UHGV virus genome: UHGV-2170436
Source of the DNA: a virus
Direction: 5' to 3' (one strand)
DNA: 35,580 nucleotides
Positions 1,452 to 35,580 of the stretch are shown in pieces. Below the pieces are notes generated by a model. It worked only from the letters and a program-made list of their open reading frames with translations, was not told the DNA's origin and did no database searches. Numbering within the stretch: position 1 is the first letter of the stretch; each line of letters opens with the position of its first letter. The position numbers and the translations under genes are program-made.

Positions 1452-1487
1452 GCCCCTATCGTTATAATACGCGGTAGGGGCGTTTTT
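1452..1487 (+). terminator. Rho-independent terminator candidate
   Basis: Stem gcccct/aggggc with 18-nt loop followed by gtttttgttt, directly after the 1024..1437 gene. Confidence 0.5.
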
Positions 1488-1500
1488 GTTTGGAAATGGT

Positions 1501-3180
1501 ATGAAAACTAAACTGTATTCGTATATTCGCTTCTCGTCTATGCGTCAGAATGATGGTTCGAGTTATGAACGACAAATCAGGATGGCTAGAGAGATTGCGG
1601 TAAAGTATGACCTTGAACTGGTAAATGATTATCAGGATCTGGGTGTATCTGCGTTTAAGGGTGCTAACTCCAAAACAGGGGCGCTATCTCGTTTCCTTGA
1701 TGCAATAGGTAGATCCGTTCCTGTTGGTAGCTGGCTATTCATCGAAAACTTGGACCGTTTATCCCGTGCCGATATTGTCAGTGCGCAGGAGTTATTCCTT
1801 TCAATCATCCGTAGGGGGATAACCATTGTTACTGGCATGGATAACAAGATCTACTCGCTGGATACTGTTACCGCTAACCCGATGGACCTGATGTTCTCCA
1901 TCCTTTTATTCATCCGTGGTAATGAGGAAAGCCAGACTAAGCGCAATCGTACTAACTCAAGCGCACTGATTAAGATTAAAGCTCATCAAGAAAATCCACA
2001 AAATCCGGCTGTTGCAATCGAGGAAATTGGAAAGAATATGTGGTGGACTGATACCACATCTGGTTATGTGCTTCCTCATCCGGTCTTCTTCCCTATTGTT
2101 CAGGAAGTTGTGGAATTACGCAGGAATGGACGGTCAACCGCCGAGATACTGGATCACCTTAACGCGACATACACACCACCACCAGCCGCAAGTCACAAGA
2201 GGCATTCAAACTGGTCACGGGCAATGATTGAAAGGTTGTTCCATACCCGCGCTTTGATTGGTATCAAGGAAATCTCTGTAGATGGCGTTAAGTATGAGTT
2301 AAAGGATTATTATCCTCGTGTGCTAGATGACGCTGAGTTTTATCACCTTAAGAAAAGCATTGGTGTTAGAGCATGTAACTTTGGAGACAAAGAAGAAGTT
2401 AAACCTATTCCCTTGCTTAGTGGTGTTGGTCTATTGAAATGTGAACATTGCGGTTCCGCTATGGTTAAGGTGAAAGGAACAAACAGACGGCCTAACCAAT
2501 ATCGTTATTCATGCGATGCAATGCGCTCTAGTCGTATTGAATGTGTGCATACAAACTGGAGTTTTCGCGGCGACCAATTAGAGAAAGCTGTATTGCAATT
2601 GCTGGCTGATAAAATCTGGATTGCTGAAGATAAGGCTAATCCGGTTCCGGCTTTGAAAGTACAGATTGATGAAATATCACGCAAGATTGATAACCTGATT
2701 ACCCTTTCTGCTATGACAGGAGCAACGAAGGAGCTAGCCGATCAGATTACTACCCTCAATAGCGAGCGTGAAACACTCTACAATCAAATTAAGATGGCAG
2801 AAGAGGAAATGTATTCTGTTGACTCTCAAGGCTGGGAGAAGCTCGCAGAATTTGATTTAGAAGATGTTTACAACGAGGATCGCATTAAGGTCCGGTTTAA
2901 GATTAAGCAAGCTCTAAAACGGATCGGGTGTAGCAGGATTGACAAGTACAAAAACTTGTTTGTACTGGAATACATCGATGGCAAGACCCAGAGAGTTGTA
3001 ATAGAAAATTCAAGAGGACCGAGGAAAGGCCGGATCTTCGTTGATTTGAAGACTATCAATGATAGGCAGATTCTGGAGAGTAACGGGCTTGTTCTGCATC
3101 CATGTTTAGACATGCTGACAGATAAGAACTGGAAACCAGAAGAAGAAATACCAGGTCCATTACAAGAATTTGGAATTTAA
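1501..3180 (+). CDS. large serine recombinase (putative integrase)
   Basis: N-terminal resolvase catalytic motifs (YIRFSSMRQ with nucleophile Ser; ENLDRLSR), central recombinase domain, Cys-rich zinc ribbon (CEHCGS...YSCDAMRSSRIECVH) and coiled coil. ORF track starts at 1486; Met at 1501 gives the canonical MK..Y.R.S N-terminus. Confidence 0.9.
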   Translation: MKTKLYSYIRFSSMRQNDGSSYERQIRMAREIAVKYDLELVNDYQDLGVSAFKGANSKTGALSRFLDAIGRSVPVGSWLFIENLDRLSRADIVSAQELFLSIIRRGITIVTGMDNKIYSLDTVTANPMDLMFSILLFIRGNEESQTKRNRTNSSALIKIKAHQENPQNPAVAIEEIGKNMWWTDTTSGYVLPHPVFFPIVQEVVELRRNGRSTAEILDHLNATYTPPPAASHKRHSNWSRAMIERLFHTRALIGIKEISVDGVKYELKDYYPRVLDDAEFYHLKKSIGVRACNFGDKEEVKPIPLLSGVGLLKCEHCGSAMVKVKGTNRRPNQYRYSCDAMRSSRIECVHTNWSFRGDQLEKAVLQLLADKIWIAEDKANPVPALKVQIDEISRKIDNLITLSAMTGATKELADQITTLNSERETLYNQIKMAEEEMYSVDSQGWEKLAEFDLEDVYNEDRIKVRFKIKQALKRIGCSRIDKYKNLFVLEYIDGKTQRVVIENSRGPRKGRIFVDLKTINDRQILESNGLVLHPCLDMLTDKNWKPEEEIPGPLQEFGI

Positions 3181-25216: not shown

Positions 25217-27121
25217 TTAGAACGATGTTACCCAGCTACGGCCTCTATTTGGGCGTCTGGCGATGTTTTGACGTTGTGGTCGTGTGATTGGCTTAGTTTC
25301 TTCGATTTGCTCGTCAGATTGCGTTTCAGGAGCTTTTACGGGTTCTTCTGGTTCACGGTTCAAACTATCTTTGATGGCTTCGAGTTTTTCCCATGACATT
25401 TTATTGAGTACATGGCGAGAAGCAGCATAGGAATAAGCCAGGCAGTCGAGAGCCTCGTTTCGTTGCTGACCAACTTTTACCCAACGTGTGGTATTACCCT
25501 GCCGTTTCAACTGTTCAGAAAGCAATTGCTCGCAATAGTCATCAGGAACGTCACCAATCTGGAAGACAGTATGAGGATCGCCATCTCTCAAGTTCCGGTT
25601 AATCATTTCACGGATCATCGTCTTAAGGTTGTTTACGCCCAGAATTTTGAGAGTAAAACCGCCCGTTCTTGTGTCCTTAGCCGGAAGGATTGGAGCATCA
25701 GCATTACTTGCGCCTTTAATGGCGCATAGGTTTTGCCACCTAGTGCAAAAACGGTAGATCACGTTTGTAGCTCGTCCGTTCGATGAGTCCACGAAAGCAG
25801 ATAGCATCGGGATTCGTTCACCGGATCGGGTATAGAATTTCGCTTTCAGGAAGTTATAAAGCTGGTCATATGCTGGTGATTCGTGGCGTTCGCAGTTCAC
25901 ATCATAGAATGATCGGTGATCAACTACGCATATCCCCTTACGAGAGATACCCAGCAAGGTAGATTCCAGACGGTCTTTTTGCTGGTCAACTCCACCTACC
26001 AGAGCCAGTACATCATCAGGAATATTGTCTAGGCTAATATCAGTTTTCAGCGTTTCCAGTTCGTCGGCTGTGCGATCTTCGTTAAGATCATCGAAGGTTT
26101 CACCGAGGACTGTATTGTAGAACGTTGCTAGTGACATATTCGCGTAGCTATCAGCAAAGTCCACCACACACGCACGGATAGAACTAAACGGAGACATAAG
26201 GCGGTTAGCATGAAAACCGATTACTTCCGCATTTGGTTCTGTAGCAATCCATTCACCTTGAGCAACAGCACGTAGGCGATCCCCTTCTGTCCAATCAGTT
26301 TCACATGACGGGCAACGATAAACGGCAGTATCTGGATTCGGCAGTGATTTACAGTTAATCGTATGCCAATCAAAGAAAACTCTACTCCATTCCATTACGT
26401 GCTTGTGTCCGCAATGCTGGCAAACGACATGATATTTTCTCTTATCCGAGAGTTCCCATTGTTGGTTAATCGCCCCATCACGAGCGGTTGGAGTGGAAGC
26501 AATTACGATCCTTGCATCTTCCCCGAAAGTGGTTGCGCGTTGTTCCGCTAGCTGGATCGGGTTCCCTTCGTCTGACTCATCAGCCGCATCAACTTCATCA
26601 AGAATAATCAAAGGGAGTGTTTTACCGCGAAGATGTGACGGACTATTCAACGACATGAAATACATAAACGATCCGTTACGAAGCTGAATAATCGATGAGT
26701 TGTTAACGGCATTGCGATCTGATTTGTCGGTGATCATCGCCTTTAATTCTGGTGTTGCCTCTAATACTGGCTTCACCTTACCAGCGATCCAGCTATTCAA
26801 CTCGCGGACATTCGATTGCAACACCCCGATATTAGTAGGGTTACTCGCGATCCGATGGAAGATAATTCCGTTAAGAATCATGGTCTTACCCAACTGTGCC
26901 GAACATTTAAACACAATTTTTCTACGGTCTTCGGTGATCGCGTCCATCATTCCACGTTGGAAGGGATGCAATTTAATTAGCGATCCGGCTTTAACACCAT
27001 CGGTCGCAACTACATTAGCCTCTACCCATTCGCTAGGTTTCATGGTTTTAGGTGGACGAATTGCAGCAGAGATATTTTTGAGAATCTTTTTTAATTTTGC
27101 CTTATTAGAAATCAGTTTCAT
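25217..27121 (-). CDS. terminase large subunit (lambda gpA-like)
   Basis: Walker A CSAQLGKT, Walker B LPLIILDEVD, Cys-rich nuclease region; GAGGGT RBS before ATG at 27121. Confidence 0.85.
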   Translation of the reverse strand: MKLISNKAKLKKILKNISAAIRPPKTMKPSEWVEANVVATDGVKAGSLIKLHPFQRGMMDAITEDRRKIVFKCSAQLGKTMILNGIIFHRIASNPTNIGVLQSNVRELNSWIAGKVKPVLEATPELKAMITDKSDRNAVNNSSIIQLRNGSFMYFMSLNSPSHLRGKTLPLIILDEVDAADESDEGNPIQLAEQRATTFGEDARIVIASTPTARDGAINQQWELSDKRKYHVVCQHCGHKHVMEWSRVFFDWHTINCKSLPNPDTAVYRCPSCETDWTEGDRLRAVAQGEWIATEPNAEVIGFHANRLMSPFSSIRACVVDFADSYANMSLATFYNTVLGETFDDLNEDRTADELETLKTDISLDNIPDDVLALVGGVDQQKDRLESTLLGISRKGICVVDHRSFYDVNCERHESPAYDQLYNFLKAKFYTRSGERIPMLSAFVDSSNGRATNVIYRFCTRWQNLCAIKGASNADAPILPAKDTRTGGFTLKILGVNNLKTMIREMINRNLRDGDPHTVFQIGDVPDDYCEQLLSEQLKRQGNTTRWVKVGQQRNEALDCLAYSYAASRHVLNKMSWEKLEAIKDSLNREPEEPVKAPETQSDEQIEETKPITRPQRQNIARRPNRGRSWVTSF

Positions 27122-27207: not shown

Positions 27208-27801
27208 ATGCTAATTAATCAGCAAGAAAGAGATGAATTAGCCTTGTCTTGTACCGATCATGAATATCGTTTGCCAGTAAAACATAAGCACTTAAAGACC
27301 GATTACACTACATCCGGTTTTAGTCGCGAAGAAGCGAAAGAGATTTTAATCGAGTTGTATCGCGATCATGGGTATACCGATATTCACAACTTCTTTAAGA
27401 AGCATAGAACATCACATACAGAGTTTCGGAGAGTCCGAGATTGGTTTGATTTTGATATCAAGCGTTATTATCGCATTGATGACGGTCCTATCTATCGGTT
27501 GCAGTGGAAGTCGATCCGAGAAGTGTTGAAACAGAAGAGATTGAATCACGCTATTACACGCTATCGTAACGAGGCTTTCAAGAAAGGCTATGGTGATACA
27601 AGGGAACTATTCGTTGAACTCGCTAACGTGAAGTACAGCCACTATTACAACGATCCTAAATCCTTCTTTGAAGTGCTTCGCAAGGTTGATATAAGTCGGG
27701 GTACATACTATTCACGGTTGAAGAAGTACGGGATTAAGGCAGAGTTCTTTATGTCGGTTGACGATGGAGAACTTTTTCCGATAAAATGTAAGTCACTCTA
27801 A
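27208..27801 (+). CDS. DNA-binding protein with duplicated resolvase-type HTH-like modules
   Basis: Two internal segments ending in a recognition-helix-like motif (ISRGTYYSRLKKYGIK), paralogous to 27834..28067 and 31103..31285; AAGGAGGG RBS. Confidence 0.45.
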   Translation: MLINQQERDELALSCTDHEYRLPVKHKHLKTDYTTSGFSREEAKEILIELYRDHGYTDIHNFFKKHRTSHTEFRRVRDWFDFDIKRYYRIDDGPIYRLQWKSIREVLKQKRLNHAITRYRNEAFKKGYGDTRELFVELANVKYSHYYNDPKSFFEVLRKVDISRGTYYSRLKKYGIKAEFFMSVDDGELFPIKCKSL

Positions 27802-27833: not shown

Positions 27834-28067
27834 ATGACTATGACTACTAAAGCTACTCGCGGTCGTCCTGCCCGTTTTAACGCTGAACAAATGGCTGATA
27901 TTGCCTACGCTTATTATACAGCGGATCGTGGTAAGGAAGCGAAAGAACAGATTCTTAGTGAACATGGGATTTCAATTGCCCAATTCTATAAGAATATGAA
28001 GAAGTTAGACATTAAATTCTATGTTCAGATCGGTGATGGTCAGATCGTAGAAGCAACAGGTTTTTGA
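27834..28067 (+). CDS. small HTH DNA-binding protein (excisionase/RDF or regulator candidate)
   Basis: TRGRPARF...GISIAQFYKNMKKLDIK resembles resolvase-type HTH; 77 aa. Confidence 0.45.
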   Translation: MTMTTKATRGRPARFNAEQMADIAYAYYTADRGKEAKEQILSEHGISIAQFYKNMKKLDIKFYVQIGDGQIVEATGF

Positions 28068-28215: not shown

Positions 28216-29031
28216 TTACAGTCCGAAGACTTCCAGTGATCCAACATTCTGGCGGAGACGTTCAGCCGCTTTATTTTGAATCAGAATAGTGTTGTTCGGC
28301 TTAGGAAGATTCAGAGTTGCTTTTTGTTCTTCTTCCAGAACACCCAATTCAACCAGCACCGGAAGCACATCAACAGTAAACTCAAGCTGGTAGTGAGCAT
28401 TCATGCGGCAGAAAGACAGAGAAGAGTCATTAGCAACATACCCACACGGCTTGTTATTTTCATCATAGACGCGCTCAATGTATCCAGCAGTACGTAAGGC
28501 CGTCAGTGCTTCTTTAACCTTCGTAGCGCCCTTTTTAGCGCCTAACAGACGTGTCATTGAATGGCTGTCTACAGACTTACGAACATGAAGTTCAATCAGC
28601 TTTTTATTTTCACGAGTTTTCTTTAACGCCAGTTCGATCCAGTCGGTTTCTTCAAAGTCTGCATACGGGTTAACGGCTAAACGTTCCTGACGCAGTTTTT
28701 CATTTTCTTCTTTCAGTCGTTTCCATTCCTGAATAACGATCATTCGACGCTTAACATCGTAACCAGTGACAAGAGTCAGCGTCATTTCTTCGTCAAGGTG
28801 ATATTCGGTTTGTTCACGTCCACACTGATCAAGATAGGTGCGCTCAAAACTGAGCACATCTAATTCCAGAGCATCGAGCATGGATTTAATATCACGTTTA
28901 ACGTTTTTATGCTCTTTTCCGGTAAATTCAGCGATCTGACGAGAAGACATGGTCAGCGGTTTGGTGTTATCAACAACCAGAGACACGGAAGCAGGTTTAA
29001 TAGCAGTATTCATAGTAGTAACAGTATTCAT
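28216..29031 (-). CDS. Rha-family phage regulatory protein / antirepressor-like
   Basis: N-terminal SSRQIAEFTGKEHKNVKRDIKSMLD matches the Rha-type signature (..IAE.FGKRH.NVLRDI..L). Confidence 0.6.
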   Translation of the reverse strand: MNTVTTMNTAIKPASVSLVVDNTKPLTMSSRQIAEFTGKEHKNVKRDIKSMLDALELDVLSFERTYLDQCGREQTEYHLDEEMTLTLVTGYDVKRRMIVIQEWKRLKEENEKLRQERLAVNPYADFEETDWIELALKKTRENKKLIELHVRKSVDSHSMTRLLGAKKGATKVKEALTALRTAGYIERVYDENNKPCGYVANDSSLSFCRMNAHYQLEFTVDVLPVLVELGVLEEEQKATLNLPKPNNTILIQNKAAERLRQNVGSLEVFGL

Positions 29032-29392: not shown

Positions 29393-29860
29393 TTACAGCA
29401 TATCTAAGCCTTCGTCGTAACCGTAGAAGCCATTCTGAGAAGAAAAACAGATTGGTGCGTAGTCGTCGTCATCTTCGTCTTGTTCATCTTCTTCTGGGGC
29501 TTCCTGAGCGGTTTCTTTGCCGTAGTTAAACATTGCTTCATCCAGTTCATAGACAGTAACGAAGCTACCCAGGTCAATGTCACCGGAACGGACTTCAAAC
29601 GGAAGATCATCACGAACAATAATTGCTGGTAGATCCTGGTACTTTAAGCGTTCTTCATCGGTGAAGACGTTAACAACAATGGTCGGCTTCTTATTACGGT
29701 AAAACGCATACCATGCACTAGAGAAATGGGATTCATCAGAGTTGAAAAGGATGTTATAACCACGTTCACGGAACATCTTCATTAACTTGTCATTGTGGAA
29801 GCTATCAGAATCCAGACCCAGAAGGATAAAAGGAGTAGTGGTAGTCATCTTGTGGTTCAT
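29393..29860 (-). CDS. hypothetical protein with strongly acidic C-terminal tail
   Basis: ...EAPEEDEQDEDDDDYAPICF; transcribed divergently from the early control region. Confidence 0.45.
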   Translation of the reverse strand: MNHKMTTTTPFILLGLDSDSFHNDKLMKMFRERGYNILFNSDESHFSSAWYAFYRNKKPTIVVNVFTDEERLKYQDLPAIIVRDDLPFEVRSGDIDLGSFVTVYELDEAMFNYGKETAQEAPEEDEQDEDDDDYAPICFSSQNGFYGYDEGLDML

Positions 29861-30060
29861 AGTGGAAATTCTCTAAAAGAAAGTGAATCAATCTAATATT
29901 ATTTATAAAGAGAAAATTCTTGTTATTATGAAAGGTGATTGTATTCAGTCGGGCAAAGCCCTCCTTCATAGATTTTGAATAAATCATCATCAAAACGAAG
30001 AAGTATCTTTAGAATATAAGAATCTTTCTTTTGGAGAAATAATAATCAGGAAGCAATTTG

Positions 30061-30089
30061 GCAACCGAAGGTTGCAATCCCGAAGGGAT
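30061..30089 (+). repeat. Two adjacent GAA-triloop hairpins
   Basis: gcaacc-gaa-ggttgc (30061-30075) and atccc-gaa-gggat (30077-30089). Confidence 0.4.
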
Positions 30090-30436
30090 AACCAATACCT
30101 TTCTAGAAAGTGATTGTTACTCACTTCGTTCGTTTACTAGAATCAGTTAGTAACTAGTATTAAATCCCTTTCTGAGAAAATCCTTTCAAAAGCGAGTGAA
30201 CGCCGTAGGTGTGAACGTGAGCGAAGCGAACTATCCAATCCCTTTCGAATCCTGCTTGCAGGTCTTAGAAGGTGTTGATGGGCGCTTCGCGCACGGCTAC
30301 GCCGTATTCTTTTTGCGAGATCTTTCTTGAACGTAGTGAGAGAAAACGAGCAAAAAGGAGAACGTTAGTTCGAATTTTATATTCTATGGTCTGTGTGGTG
30401 AAATGTCTTTCAAGATCATACACTTATGAGATTGAA

Positions 30437-30534
30437 GTGTAGGGTTAGTGTAGGTGTGTAGGTGTTATAGTGTAGGTTTACTGGCTAGTGTAGTGTAGGC
30501 CAATCCCTTTAAAGCGTAGGTTTGTAGTGTAGGT
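30437..30534 (+). repeat. Iteron-like direct repeat array (GTGTAGG core, at least 6 exact copies plus variants)
   Basis: GTGTAGG at 30437, 30448, 30456, 30470, 30493, 30527; variants at 30488 and 30514; four copies of the 10-mer TAGTGTAGGT spaced about 22-34 bp apart. Confidence 0.7.
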
Positions 30535-30730
30535 TTTTCATCAAAAATTTTGATAGAAAATTCTTGTATATTATTTAACCAGAAAATCACCAAAAACCGC
30601 TGTAAATGCATGATTTAAAAAGAATCATCAAAAGGTCGCCGTGCTATAATAGGTTATAAAGGTTGATAATCGTTATCCGCCATTTTCACACAAAAATTTT
30701 GATAGTCATTTCTCGCTTAGATCAAGTGTA

Positions 30731-30759
30731 TTGACAACTGTCAAGGATTATTTTATACT
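30731..30759 (+). promoter_or_regulatory. Near-consensus sigma70 promoter (TTGACA - 17 bp - TATACT) with operator-like palindrome
   Basis: TTGACA 30731-30736, 17-nt spacer, TATACT 30754-30759; -35 is part of the near-palindrome TTGACAACTGTCAA. Confidence 0.65.
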
Positions 30760-31102
30760 TTTTCTCGTTGGTAGGGGTTGAAATTTTCGAAACAATCCAC
30801 ATATTGATGATACGCAAGATTTTTTCGTGTATAAATACATGCATGAAAATGATTGTTCACTTCTGAAAATCCCCTGATTCACTGTTAATTCATACAGCAC
30901 TGGCTAAACATACAGTGCTTATTCGATTGAATAATGTACGAATTGATTAATTATTAATCTTCTCTTTAGCAATTCGTGCTCCCACTGATCGGATATACAG
31001 TGGTTTTACAGGGTTTTTCGAAAAACATTTTATAAATAGAATTGTTCAGAGCGAAAAGCTCTTTTTTAAGAAATCATTATTCCAGATTTAGGAGGATATA
31101 AG

Positions 31103-31285
31103 ATGGCACGACCTGTTAAGTTCACTCGTGAAATCGTTTTAGAAATGGCAAAGCGTTATTTTGAACTGACACCTGATGTAGTGATGGGTGAATGGTTTAA
31201 AGGTGAAGGTATTGATCAATCAACCTTCCACAAACTCTTAAAGAAGTATGACATTAAAGTAAAGATTACCGCCGAGGTCTGGTAA
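31103..31285 (+). CDS. small HTH DNA-binding protein (paralog of 27834..28067)
   Basis: MARPVKFTREIV...GIDQSTFHKLLKKYDIK; GGAGG RBS. Confidence 0.5.
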   Translation: MARPVKFTREIVLEMAKRYFELTPDVVMGEWFKGEGIDQSTFHKLLKKYDIKVKITAEVW

Positions 31286-31328
31286 TAACCTTTCACTGAG
31301 AATTATATGATGGCTTTAAAAATAAAAA

Positions 31329-31357
31329 AGCCTCCCTGTTGGCGCAAGGAGGCTTTT
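31329..31357 (+). terminator. Rho-independent terminator
   Basis: agcctcc-N12-ggaggct followed by tttt. Confidence 0.65.
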
Positions 31358-31401: not shown

Positions 31402-32397
31402 ATGAAAAATTCTAAGCGCATTACCTTCAACATGTTTATTAAATCCAACGGCAAACTGAACATCACTGTCATGGAAGGTAAAGCAAGCAAACAAGACAAA
31501 TCCTTTGAAGTAGTATCAGGTAAGACTCTGACCGAAATGCGTCAAAATGCTGGCATCAAAGACGGTGCTGAATGGCAGATCACCAACCGTTTCGACAAAC
31601 GTCACGTTAAACCTACACTGGTAGAAGGTGAATCCGTTTATTGCTTCGCTCGTGCTGTTAAAGCTGATGAAACTTACTATCTGGCTGTTGTTAAAACGGC
31701 TTCCGGCTTCCGTGCTGTAATGCATCACAAGAGCAAACGTAACGAATACGGCGTAGAGACCCAGGAAGTCGCAAAACGCTTCCGTACTGTTGCTACCGAA
31801 TCCACTGTAAAGGATGTTTCTGGTACTGTTAACACCGCTAAAGGCGGTTCCTTCTACAACCACGCATTACAGGTTACTTCCTCCTTCTTCTGCAAAAAAG
31901 AAGCACAGAAAGAAGTTTCTCCGGTAGTAGTTGAAGAAGTTAAAGAAGAAGTTGCAGTGGTTGAATATTCCGAAGTTGAAGCACTGAAAGCACGCATCGC
32001 TGAACTGGAAGCTGAAAACGCATCTCTGAAAGCTGAACTGGCAGCACAGGAAACCACTTTCGAAGTAGCAGCGGTTGAAGTTGAAGCAGTTGAAGAAAAA
32101 TCCATTGATGAAGAACTGGAAGAACTCCTTAACTATCGCTGGGGTGTTGTTGCAGAAGTAGAACAAGAAGTTGCTCCGGTAGTTGTTCCGGTTGAAGTTG
32201 AAGAAGAATCCGCACCTGTTACTAACTTTGAATCCCTGCGCAATAACTTTATGGCTAAATTCAAAACCACTTGGGAAGATACCGAAGAAGAACAAGAAGA
32301 GATTGAAGTAAACGAAGACGAGATCCGCGAAGCACAGATGGCACTGCATGACGCTATCTACGACACCAACTACAGCGCCTACGCATACGCAGCTTAA
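31402..32397 (+). CDS. hypothetical early protein with acidic, Val/Glu-rich coiled-coil C-terminal half
   Basis: AGGAG RBS; 331 aa; no motif recognised. Confidence 0.45.
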   Translation: MKNSKRITFNMFIKSNGKLNITVMEGKASKQDKSFEVVSGKTLTEMRQNAGIKDGAEWQITNRFDKRHVKPTLVEGESVYCFARAVKADETYYLAVVKTASGFRAVMHHKSKRNEYGVETQEVAKRFRTVATESTVKDVSGTVNTAKGGSFYNHALQVTSSFFCKKEAQKEVSPVVVEEVKEEVAVVEYSEVEALKARIAELEAENASLKAELAAQETTFEVAAVEVEAVEEKSIDEELEELLNYRWGVVAEVEQEVAPVVVPVEVEEESAPVTNFESLRNNFMAKFKTTWEDTEEEQEEIEVNEDEIREAQMALHDAIYDTNYSAYAYAA

Positions 32398-32412: not shown

Positions 32413-32655
32413 ATGATGAATCAAAACAAAGAATTTCTGGGTAATCTGATGTTAGAAATTACCAAAATGAAAGAAAGAATGGTAGCGATGGAATCAGAGA
32501 TTAAAACACTTAAAGCTGATAATAAGGCGTTGAGAAAGTCCTTAAAGCTGATTGATGAGACTAATGCGGTTATGATGGATCATGTATTCCCTGAGTGGCG
32601 AAATGAAACTAAACCTACACAACATAAGAAACTTACACTTCGAATTGTTGCATAA
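32413..32655 (+). CDS. hypothetical coiled-coil protein
   Basis: GAGGTGA RBS; 80 aa. Confidence 0.4.
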   Translation: MMNQNKEFLGNLMLEITKMKERMVAMESEIKTLKADNKALRKSLKLIDETNAVMMDHVFPEWRNETKPTQHKKLTLRIVA

Positions 32656-33350: not shown

Positions 33351-33905
33351 TTAAGACACATCAAATTCATCGTCTTCTTCTGGTTCTTGTTCCGGTTCAT
33401 CCATTAATGGTAATTCTTCTTCCTCGTCTTCTCCCAAATCAGCATTTTCGAACAAGTCCCCTACTTCATTTAAACGACGCTCGATGATCTCCCTTAGCTT
33501 ATTCTTCAATGTTTTCTGGTCATTGGCAGATTCGAGAATTTCTAGGGCATCGATCGTACAAATCTGCAAAATAGTCTGTTTCACTTTCCCGCAGTATTCC
33601 GCTAGTTCCTGTTCTACATAACCGACAGGAATCAGGAGATTCATTTTTTCCTGGTTCTCTCGTTCGGCTGCATCTGCCAAAGCACGTTCACGGCGTAATT
33701 TCTCTACATCGATTTGTTCTTTGATAGAAGTTTGTTTAAGCGGGTTGATAATATTTTTCAAGACCCATTCTGTTCCTTCTTTGGCTGGCACGCGGCGGGT
33801 ATTGGTGTTAAATGGCAATCCCCTTTCTATCCATCGCTTAGCGCCACCATTCAATGAATAGCCGTATAAACGGGAAATTTCTGTAAGGGTTAATTCTTCT
33901 TTCAT
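33351..33905 (-). CDS. terminase small subunit (lambda Nu1-like)
   Basis: N-terminal winged-HTH LTLTEISRLYGYSLNGGAKRWIERGLPF and following EKLRRERALADAAE parallel Nu1 (KKQLADIFGASIRTIQNWQEQGMPV; EKLRREVEELRQASE) as I recall it; acidic C-terminus. Confidence 0.55.
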   Translation of the reverse strand: MKEELTLTEISRLYGYSLNGGAKRWIERGLPFNTNTRRVPAKEGTEWVLKNIINPLKQTSIKEQIDVEKLRRERALADAAERENQEKMNLLIPVGYVEQELAEYCGKVKQTILQICTIDALEILESANDQKTLKNKLREIIERRLNEVGDLFENADLGEDEEEELPLMDEPEQEPEEDDEFDVS

Positions 33906-35058: not shown

Positions 35059-35256
35059 TAGAGGCGACATAATACAATCAGAGATAGTTAAACGCCCGAA
35101 TATTACTAGTTAGTTCCTAAGTTCATTTCTTATGGTGTTAATTGCGACTCAGTTGCTATAGAATTCTTCTAATTCATTGATTCTATAGCCCTGTCCTTGT
35201 GATGGGGCTTTTTATTGCAAAATTTTTAGTTATTTTGGGTTGACTACATTCGGGTT

Positions 35257-35559
35257 GCCAATTCGCCTGGCTAACTCTTGCTGAGTGATTTCTGACTGTA
35301 AAAAAGCATTTAACAGCAATACCTTAGAGGCGACGCTCAAAGGTACTTCAATAAAGTGATCATGACTATTTAATGGCGAAGGTAACGGGATAAGCTCGTT
35401 ATCTTCAAAATAAAAATCAAATGCGGTCAGTAAAGCATCTTTTGCCGCTTCCATCGCTTCAGCGACAGTTTCGCCCTGCGTCAACGCTTCAGGGATATCC
35501 ACAAAAGAAACCATATAACCGCCTTCCGGCGCGGGTGTAAGAGTGACGGGATAACGCAT
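35257..35559 (-). pseudogene. hicB: hicB antitoxin gene, 3'-truncated (HTH domain lost)
   Basis: MRYPVTLTPAPEGGYMVSFVDIPEALTQGETVAEAMEAAKDAL fits the HicB N-terminal signature; the HTH begins at ...ITQQELARRIG and is replaced by NPNVVNPK-stop encoded by AT-rich DNA. Confidence 0.65.
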
Positions 35560-35580
35560 AATTTCGACTGTCTCTCGCAT

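Follow-up and report, generated by a model that had tools for sequence, protein, structure and literature searches.

The window, by which we mean the whole stretch of 35,580 nucleotides analyzed here, is an E. coli chromosomal prophage of ~35 kb. Its morphogenesis set is complete, with structural genes for a lambda-J-like tail tip, a capsid-protease fusion, and a portal, and it also encodes an M15 endolysin. A large serine recombinase, the integrase, lies at 1486-3180 and a gpA-like large terminase at 25217-27121. The gene for the Nu1-like small terminase (33351-33905) is split from that of the large terminase by the whole early region. The leftward early operon begins with p155, which encodes an acidic protein (29393-29860, minus strand), and continues with p51 and a Rha-family regulator (28216-29031). 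The rightward operon begins with p60, encoding a small HTH-like protein (31103-31285, plus strand), followed by p331 (31402-32397, plus strand) and, directly after it, p80 (32413-32655, plus strand), a small coiled-coil protein that ends in LTLRIVA and gave only weak coiled-coil matches in a family library search. An HTH-like motif, RPxKFTxE ... GI..stF.K.LKK.dIK, is shared by p60 (31103-31285), p77 (27834-28067), and p197 (27208-27801), the last of which appears to hold it twice; the three are paralogues, forming a small group of putative DNA-binding proteins whose genes are scattered through the early region. Family library searches of the whole prophage recognized no replication gene, CI-like repressor, or excisionase.

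The prophage is inserted beside hicAB and yncJ, and at its right end (35230-35580) it meets a truncated hicB, with hicA and yncJ alongside. Other members adjoin a PHP-domain gene and a 2-hydroxyacid dehydrogenase gene (locus L029, 27274-27804). These two flanking gene contexts indicate that the prophage family uses at least two integration sites. Among 5,426 complete E. coli genomes, 63 contain the 28-33 kb stretch; all 65 places were chromosomal, none being on plasmids. No close sequenced phage is represented in the phage collection, where the closest large terminase shares 43% identity. That match comes from PQ671644.1 (phage DCP80), a 141-kb record classed as a T4-like Gaprivervirus in which every other gene within the 15.6 kb fetched around the terminase is labeled "hypothetical protein"; this record may be a chimera or wrongly assigned. 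A literature search by integration site returned nothing relevant to this prophage.

The two early operons are separated by a gap of 1242 bp between the 155-aa ORF (ending at 29860, minus strand) and the 60-aa ORF (starting at 31103, plus strand). All ORFs within the gap are 56 aa or shorter, and they are not conserved, because relatives differ by 22-bp indels within the array of repeats that the gap contains. This iteron array (30433-30536, plus strand) is built of direct repeats, namely six exact GTGTAGG cores, starting at 30437, 30448, 30456, 30470, 30493, and 30527, and two one-mismatch variants, GTGTAGT (30488) and GCGTAGG (30514). The consensus of the array sites is tTAGTGTAGGTtt. In the entire window, GTGTAGG occurs 10 times, with six copies on the plus strand within 97 bp. 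By comparison, 100 dinucleotide-preserving shuffles of the whole window (35.6 kb, both strands) contained 2.0 copies on average and 8 at most, so that 0 of 100 reached 10.

Counting GCGTAGG, the core spacings run 11, 8, 14, 23, 21, and 13 bp in order. The main sites are 21-23 bp apart (22, 23, and 21), corresponding to two helical turns, and extra sites at 8-14 bp, which are atypical for classical iterons, lie at the array edges. The 10-mer TAGTGTAGGT is present in three exact copies (30446, 30468, and 30525) and one copy with a single mismatch (TAGTGTAGGC, 30491), and these 10-mers are separated by 22, 23, and 34 bp. Alleles of relatives differ by whole 22-bp units through indels inside the array, and the window allele has one such unit less than the commonest form. 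Accordingly, Tandem Repeats Finder reported a period-22 repeat in the full-length allele (L029) and only a period-8 stretch in the window. These data bear out much of a first-pass annotation of this DNA, which had described at least six exact cores with variants as direct repeats at two-turn spacing in a 1.2-kb ORF-free region. Its figure of four 10-mers was slightly generous, as only three are exact and the fourth, at 30491, carries a mismatch.

Two inverted copies of GTGTAGGTTT lie ~1 kb apart in the p331 and p80 genes (31609-31618 and 32611-32620, minus strand), and both encode Lys-Pro-Thr. We considered them as selected sites, and they are probably coincidental, because the first copy, kept in L030, is lost in L032 via synonymous changes. 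The motif RAAGTGAW is not enriched in the window.

On its right, the array abuts an AT-rich near-palindrome of 27 bp, TTTTTCATCAAAA-A-TTTTGATAGAAAA (30534-30560), and the GC minimum of the gap (21.7%, at 30520-30579) lies beside the array. The core of the near-palindrome, CAAAAATTTTGATAG, recurs 149 bp to the right at 30691-30705. Put in terms of an operator-like palindrome, ATCAAAAATTTTGAT is found twice, 149 bp apart, at 30534-30560 and 30689-30705. Two rightward promoters follow. P1, a candidate read from the sequence, has an extended -10 element, TGcTATAAT (30642-30650, plus strand), which is conserved in relatives sharing the leader type and absent from our consensus scan, which demands a -35 match. 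P2 is a strong sigma-70-type promoter (TTGACA-17-TATACT, 11/12; 30731-30759, plus strand) that is conserved in relatives, and the palindrome TTGACAacTGTCAA (30731-30744) overlies its -35 hexamer. The palindromes ATCAAAAATTTTGAT and TTGACAacTGTCAA thus flank the rightward promoters; they track the leader type and not the array type, and other leader types carry palindromes of their own, such as GTGCAATTGCAC in L030 and L038. The distance from the array to P1 and P2 is 110-200 bp, and it overlaps neither. The leader of ~300 nt ends in an intrinsic-terminator-like hairpin, AGAGC-GAAAA-GCTCT plus a T run (31048-31068, plus strand), which is kept in all leader types and sits just 5' of the p60 ribosome-binding site. 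A second hairpin, with a 13-bp stem, lies between p60 and p331 (31326-31357); the scan called it a minus-strand terminator, and on the plus strand only TTTT follows. Relatives with the R2 leader do not share the AT-rich stretch on the right side of the array; in them, strong promoters come directly after the array. A scan for DnaA boxes and GATC clusters found none conserved in any array type.

On its left, the array is adjoined by promoter-like hexamers on the minus strand (30409 to 30374). A terminator-like hairpin, ACGGC-TAC-GCCGT plus a T run (30293-30315, plus strand), is located ~120 bp from the array, and at this position the other types have different GC hairpins with a T-rich tail (GGGC-TAC-GCCC and GCGCCC-CGCA-GGGCGC). 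The plus-strand RNA of 30058-30316 folds at -88.7 kcal/mol, with z = -5.5 relative to shuffles (-2.8 for the minus strand), making this region a candidate structured RNA of ~260 nt that ends in the 30293-30315 hairpin. An automatic alignment of six relatives contained no compensatory pairs in the 3' domain of this RNA. One of its hairpins is swapped in L038, where CCUGC/GCAGG becomes CCAGC/GCUGG. On the minus strand, 30059-30093 holds two cUUCGg-tetraloop hairpins, GCAACC-UUCG-GGUUGC and AUCCC-UUCG-GGGAU, and UNCG loops are kept on this strand in relatives (cUGCGg in L010 and cUACGg twice in L030), which suggests a structured long 5' leader on the p155 mRNA. Rfam gave no match in the window at the gathering score and only chance-level matches in the gap at an E-value threshold, and a tRNA scan returned nothing relevant.

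Farther left, 29965-30051 lies in the part of the gap conserved across E. coli relatives of types A-D (described below). It shares ~80% identity over 75-85 nt with an unannotated intergenic stretch of RB49-like T4-type phages (Krischvirus); in RB49 this is 97689-97763, upstream of ORF164c, and the common core contains the palindrome TGATTAAATCA. The stretch may be a shared promoter or operator element. A near-identity DNA search of the gap against phages gave no match, and a distant search returned only this 80-nt Krischvirus match, which falls outside the array.

We compared the locus with 27 IMG/VR loci and one E. coli genome locus, all carrying the 155-aa gene. An exact 28-mer scan of viral contigs gave no match. 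A scan with the p155 alignment found no locus in genome contigs and only four additional ones in viral contigs, three of them from contigs already in the set. The gap to the 60-aa gene measures 1160-1390 bp in the 24 loci with both flanking genes and ~1590 bp in one more. The repeats in this gap fall into four types. Type A, seen in 12 loci, has 6-9 copies of GTGTAGG, and p331 follows the 60-aa gene (31402-32397 in the window). Type B, also seen in 12 loci, has 4-9 copies of TTTCAGGGGCAAAAA, spaced 13/21/21/22/14, together with an unrelated-looking protein of 313-319 aa (p313); AGGGGCA pairs with p313 in 12 of 12. Type C (one locus) has 13 copies of NCGGGGA at multiples of ~11 bp together with p337 plus p333, and type D (one locus) has ~10 copies of CCTTGTACATC plus seven of CTAATACCGGGGA together with p371 plus p363. 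All repeat types share a strand-specific G-rich, C-poor bias (GC skew 0.84).

In every locus compared, the repeat type agreed with the type of protein (~310-370 aa) specified by the second gene of the rightward operon (25 of 25, with 12 of 12 for type A), and the array and the gene half encoding the p331 N-domain each matched 18 of 5,426 complete E. coli genomes, the same 18 accessions in both cases, although the relatives share descent and both 25/25 and 18/18 therefore overstate the number of independent events. Other parts of the region vary independently of the array type, namely the ~570 bp of promoter and leader (R1 and R2), p60, p155, Rha, p77, and the small terminase. A single p60 type is found with both A and B arrays, and p197 is ~90% conserved across all array types. 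A few recombinant combinations are found: L016 joins an A array and p331 to the R2 leader, and L004, L009, and L013 join a B array and p313 to the R1 leader. Linkage alone therefore does not explain the pairing of array and protein.

More distant relatives showed the same correspondence. In Salmonella and other hosts, p331 homologues with 79-80% identity are accompanied by TAGTGTAGG with spacings of 11, 8, 14, 22, and 23. In the Salmonella-type relatives, core positions are 88-98% identical compared with 56% for non-core positions, and the spacers and flanks have diverged. A p331 homologue with 46% identity is paired with six copies of TTAGTGCAGGG, representing a one-base change in the core. 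Read from the sequences, this one-base-changed pair and the recombinant combinations are the strongest evidence that we have. Relatives with other leaders contain extra repeats in a consensus promoter spacer (TTGACAcTGTGTAGGatcggTGcTATAAT), just 5' of the -35 element, or just 3' of the start site. Mosaic arrays also occur. Where the leader is R2, type B gaps (L002, L012, L014, and L022-L025) have 1-3 GTGTAGG copies at the right edge, one of them in a consensus promoter spacer, and the Salmonella type A array (L030) holds two CAGGGGCAA-like copies, which suggests recombination breakpoints inside arrays.

Together, these data establish that the array is real, is under selection, and co-varies with the N-terminal domain of p331-type proteins. 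They also agree with the first-pass view of a multi-site binding array, given that the motif is kept where spacers diverge, the array changes by 22-bp units, and the repeat swaps with one protein. Because repeat type and protein type swap together, p331 is very probably the cognate binder of this site array, physical binding being our inference from this co-variation. The binders proposed in the first-pass annotation were different, namely small HTH proteins such as p60 and the acidic protein of 155 aa, and the types of neither p60 nor the acidic protein co-vary with the array. The same annotation had found no recognizable initiator nearby and allowed for a binder encoded outside the window. 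The former statement stands to the extent that no library recognizes p331; an outside binder is not needed, as p331 co-varies with the array. We also considered p80 as the array binder and rejected it, because type B relatives lack p80 and nevertheless have an array.

The p331 gene starts ~870 bases from the array. Its product has an N-terminal domain (approximately residues 1-175) that is predicted to be beta-rich and contains a conserved basic motif, GFRAVMHHKSKRNEYG, followed by a central coiled coil, an acidic region, and the C-terminus AYAYAA. Regions weakly similar to the N-terminal region occur in the type C and D proteins. Types A and B are similar over the C-terminal two-thirds and not in their N-domains, and two type B proteins that share the same array are 96% identical over residues 1-243 with unrelated C-termini. 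These comparisons map the specificity to the N-terminal part of the protein. The C-termini of p331-type proteins read AYAYAA (window 32380-32397), RRAA, RKAA, and DFAA (relatives L003, L006, and L013), presumably reminiscent of ssrA-type ClpX tags, and the next-encoded protein (p80, with its tail at 32630-32655, or its longer counterparts p123, p333, and p363 in other types) always ends in (P)TLR(L/I)VA. These conserved tails may mark the proteins for proteolysis or dock them onto a shared partner.

Searches of Pfam, PHROGs, and PDB sequences and a PDB profile search showed no similarity of p331 to Rep, lambda O, RepA_N, DnaD, or any other initiator, and the family libraries detected no HTH or repressor family in it. 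When all binder types and their neighboring genes were compared with Pfam, PHROGs, and PDB sequences, only coiled-coil noise was returned. The phage and plasmid collections contained no p331 homologue. A collection of 5.8 billion proteins contained only close "hypothetical" homologues, and a representative library of 1.8 billion contained ~3 related clusters.

Our best reading of the locus, to which we assign a probability of roughly 0.45, is that the array is the replication origin of the phage and p331 its initiator. Several features point in this direction. The array is made of direct repeats phased at two turns whose number changes by whole units, and the AT-rich palindromic stretch and the GC minimum abut it. 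The phage has no other recognizable replication function, and the cognate binder is its sole early protein of any size; moreover, p331 sits where a delayed-early gene would be expected, behind a terminator and a further hairpin. Finally, the V. cholerae PLE satellites provide a precedent with the same logic. Under the origin reading, several p331 molecules, joined by their central coiled coil, would sit on the phased sites along a single helical face, and the AT-rich palindromic stretch at 30534-30580 would be a candidate melting region. p331 would then be an initiator that lacks an enzymatic domain and recruits host replication proteins, and it would probably also feed back on the neighboring early promoters. 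Set beside known iteron origins, the locus has repeats in helical phase and, as judged from co-variation, a matched binder encoded by the same element, and that binder falls in no known initiator family. Against a classical origin stand the lack of DnaA boxes or GATC clusters, the absence of the AT-rich neighbor with the R2 leader, and the irregular spacing at the array edges.

The PLE satellites of V. cholerae combine RepA with an iteron origin in a noncoding region, and origin swapping showed that this replicon is modular; the N-terminal DNA-binding domain of RepA co-varies with the iterons and its C-terminal part changes separately, RepA lacks any helicase or primase domain, and the satellites carry a large serine recombinase (PMC7145576, PMC8263062). 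Our prophage resembles PLE in having its repeats in a long noncoding region apart from the binder gene, an N-terminal domain that co-varies with the repeats, a C-terminal part that swaps separately, no helicase or primase domain in the binder, and a large serine recombinase. The two differ in that there is no sequence similarity, RepA being RepA_N/DnaD-like and helical, whereas p331 is predicted to be beta-rich with a long coiled coil. Moreover, the PLE iterons are semi-palindromes of ~30 bp, in contrast to asymmetric sites of 10-13 bp here; PLE is a satellite, whereas the prophage is a complete tailed phage; and the origin is proven in PLE and proposed from sequence here. With no homology between the two systems, the likeness is one of design and not of family membership.

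The array shares with the iteron origins of theta plasmids (F, P1, pSC101, R6K, and RK2) and with the lambdoid O/ori system direct repeats at two turns, an AT-rich neighbor, a nearby gene for the cognate binder, which probably regulates its own expression, and a multiplicity of specificity types among relatives. Lambda O is a ClpXP substrate, and a possibly protease-labile p331 tail would parallel it. Unlike those origins, however, the prophage has no DnaA boxes, its binder is not a Rep_3 or lambda O homologue, its core spans 7-13 bp instead of 17-22 bp, and there are extra sites spaced at 8-14 bp. It also differs from lambda ori in that the array lies outside the binder's gene. Phage operator arrays, such as the P2 C half-sites 22 bp apart and O1-O3 of Mu c, likewise consist of direct repeats between divergent early promoters and differ in specificity among related phages. 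Here, in contrast, there are 7-13 sites, the binder gene is not divergently transcribed as a lysogenic gene, p331 has no recognizable HTH or winged-helix family, and the sites in the window are off the promoters. Centromeres of types II and Ib (R1 parC-ParR and the pSM19035 omega heptads) have short direct repeats at 7-11 bp or helical spacing, which are bound cooperatively and double as promoter control, and the type C array described above has 11-bp spacing; yet there is no partner NTPase in our case, the element is chromosomal, and p331 is far larger than RHH centromere-binding proteins.

The principal competing explanation is that the array is an operator or enhancer and p331 a transcription regulator that represses or activates the divergent early promoters. 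In this way p331 might autoregulate the rightward operon or control the leftward p155-Rha operon, or the pair might serve as a heteroimmunity determinant. The array does sit between divergent early operons, with the minus-strand hexamers (30409 to 30374) at its left edge, and the prophage has no recognizable CI-like repressor. Repressor-operator pairs are also known to swap as specificity units, as in lambdoid immunity regions and the P2 C repressor with its direct repeats 22 bp apart. The extra copies that relatives carry in a promoter spacer, just upstream of the -35 element, or just downstream of the start site fit transcriptional control as well as they fit autoregulation by a Rep protein. 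Site-promoter overlap is thus present in some relatives and absent from the window, where the array stays 110-200 bp clear of both rightward promoters. Furthermore, 7-13 direct sites at two turns are more typical of origins and centromeres than of phage operators, and separate palindromic operator-like elements already flank the promoters. The second place in an operon driven by a near-consensus promoter, behind a terminator, is an odd position for a lysogenic repressor; p331 is encoded in the rightward operon, and no repressor family was detected in it. On this evidence we consider the regulatory reading plausible, though less likely than an origin. Rep proteins commonly autoregulate, which means that the origin and regulatory readings are not mutually exclusive.

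The remaining explanations are far less probable. The array might be bound by p60, by its paralogues p77 or p197, by the Rha-family protein, or by the 155-aa acidic protein, all encoded adjacent to it or nearby and three of them (p60, p77, and p197) with the HTH-like motif; the types of p60, p155, Rha, and p77 do not track the array, however, and p197 is nearly constant (~90%) throughout, leaving this very unlikely. We give similarly little credence to the repeats acting in RNA, where the transcribed array would present repeated sites to an RNA-binding protein or, in the minus-strand transcript, a C-rich region for Rho loading. The strong plus-strand fold of 30058-30316 (z = -5.5), the UNCG-type hairpins on the minus strand, and the strand-specific G-rich, C-poor composition of the repeats (skew 0.84) would be in keeping with such a role, but the plus-strand terminator directly upstream of the array should stop rightward transcripts arriving from the left, phasing at 21-23 bp and unit indels indicate the geometry of duplex DNA, Rfam gave no match, and no promoter positioned to transcribe the array is shared by all types. 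Direct-repeat arrays are also targets of small terminases and centromere-binding proteins, which speaks for a packaging site (cosB or pac) or a partition site (centromere). Yet the Nu1-like gene is 2.8 kb away with its own upstream gap and a type independent of the array, and partition, an option in the first-pass annotation, lacks a partner: no ParA, ParM, or TubZ-type NTPase is encoded in the window, 65 of 65 E. coli places are chromosomal, and the plasmid collection gave no match. Either site is thus highly improbable. Lastly, short G/T-rich motifs can grow by slippage, and the window allele does differ by one unit, so that the repeats might be functionless products of chance or low-complexity drift. 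This is effectively refuted by the comparative data. None of the 100 shuffles reached the observed count, and other types have different arrays of equal regularity that change together with one protein. The case that had been set out at the start, of drift absent in relatives, is contradicted by the Salmonella-type relatives, which keep motif and spacing despite diverged spacers.

If the origin reading is extended to the relatives, p331, p313, p337, p371, and similar proteins could form an unrecognized initiator family that, together with swappable iterons, would constitute the whole replicon of a group of enterobacterial temperate siphophages in which no known replication gene is present, a proposal that we put forward tentatively from sequence comparisons. 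The members of such a family would combine a fast-evolving, beta-rich DNA-binding domain with a coiled coil and a degron-like tail. If this is true, the repeated swapping of iterons and N-domains would reflect conflict between co-resident relatives or with enemies that target the origin.

A phased array with a cognate binder that swaps specificity is a known kind of system; the binder family, the repeats, and the phage group are uncharacterized. The prophage family is present in ~1% of complete E. coli genomes and in Salmonella, and the phage collection searched contains no sequenced isolate of it. The pairing of array and protein is the first concrete handle on the control or copying of this family, gives an orphan protein family a testable DNA target, and offers no fewer than five naturally occurring specificity pairs in which to follow the co-evolution of DNA-binding specificity and sites. 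Should the origin reading be true, the locus would represent a minimal host-dependent replicon of a new type, which would be usable as a compatible vector module.
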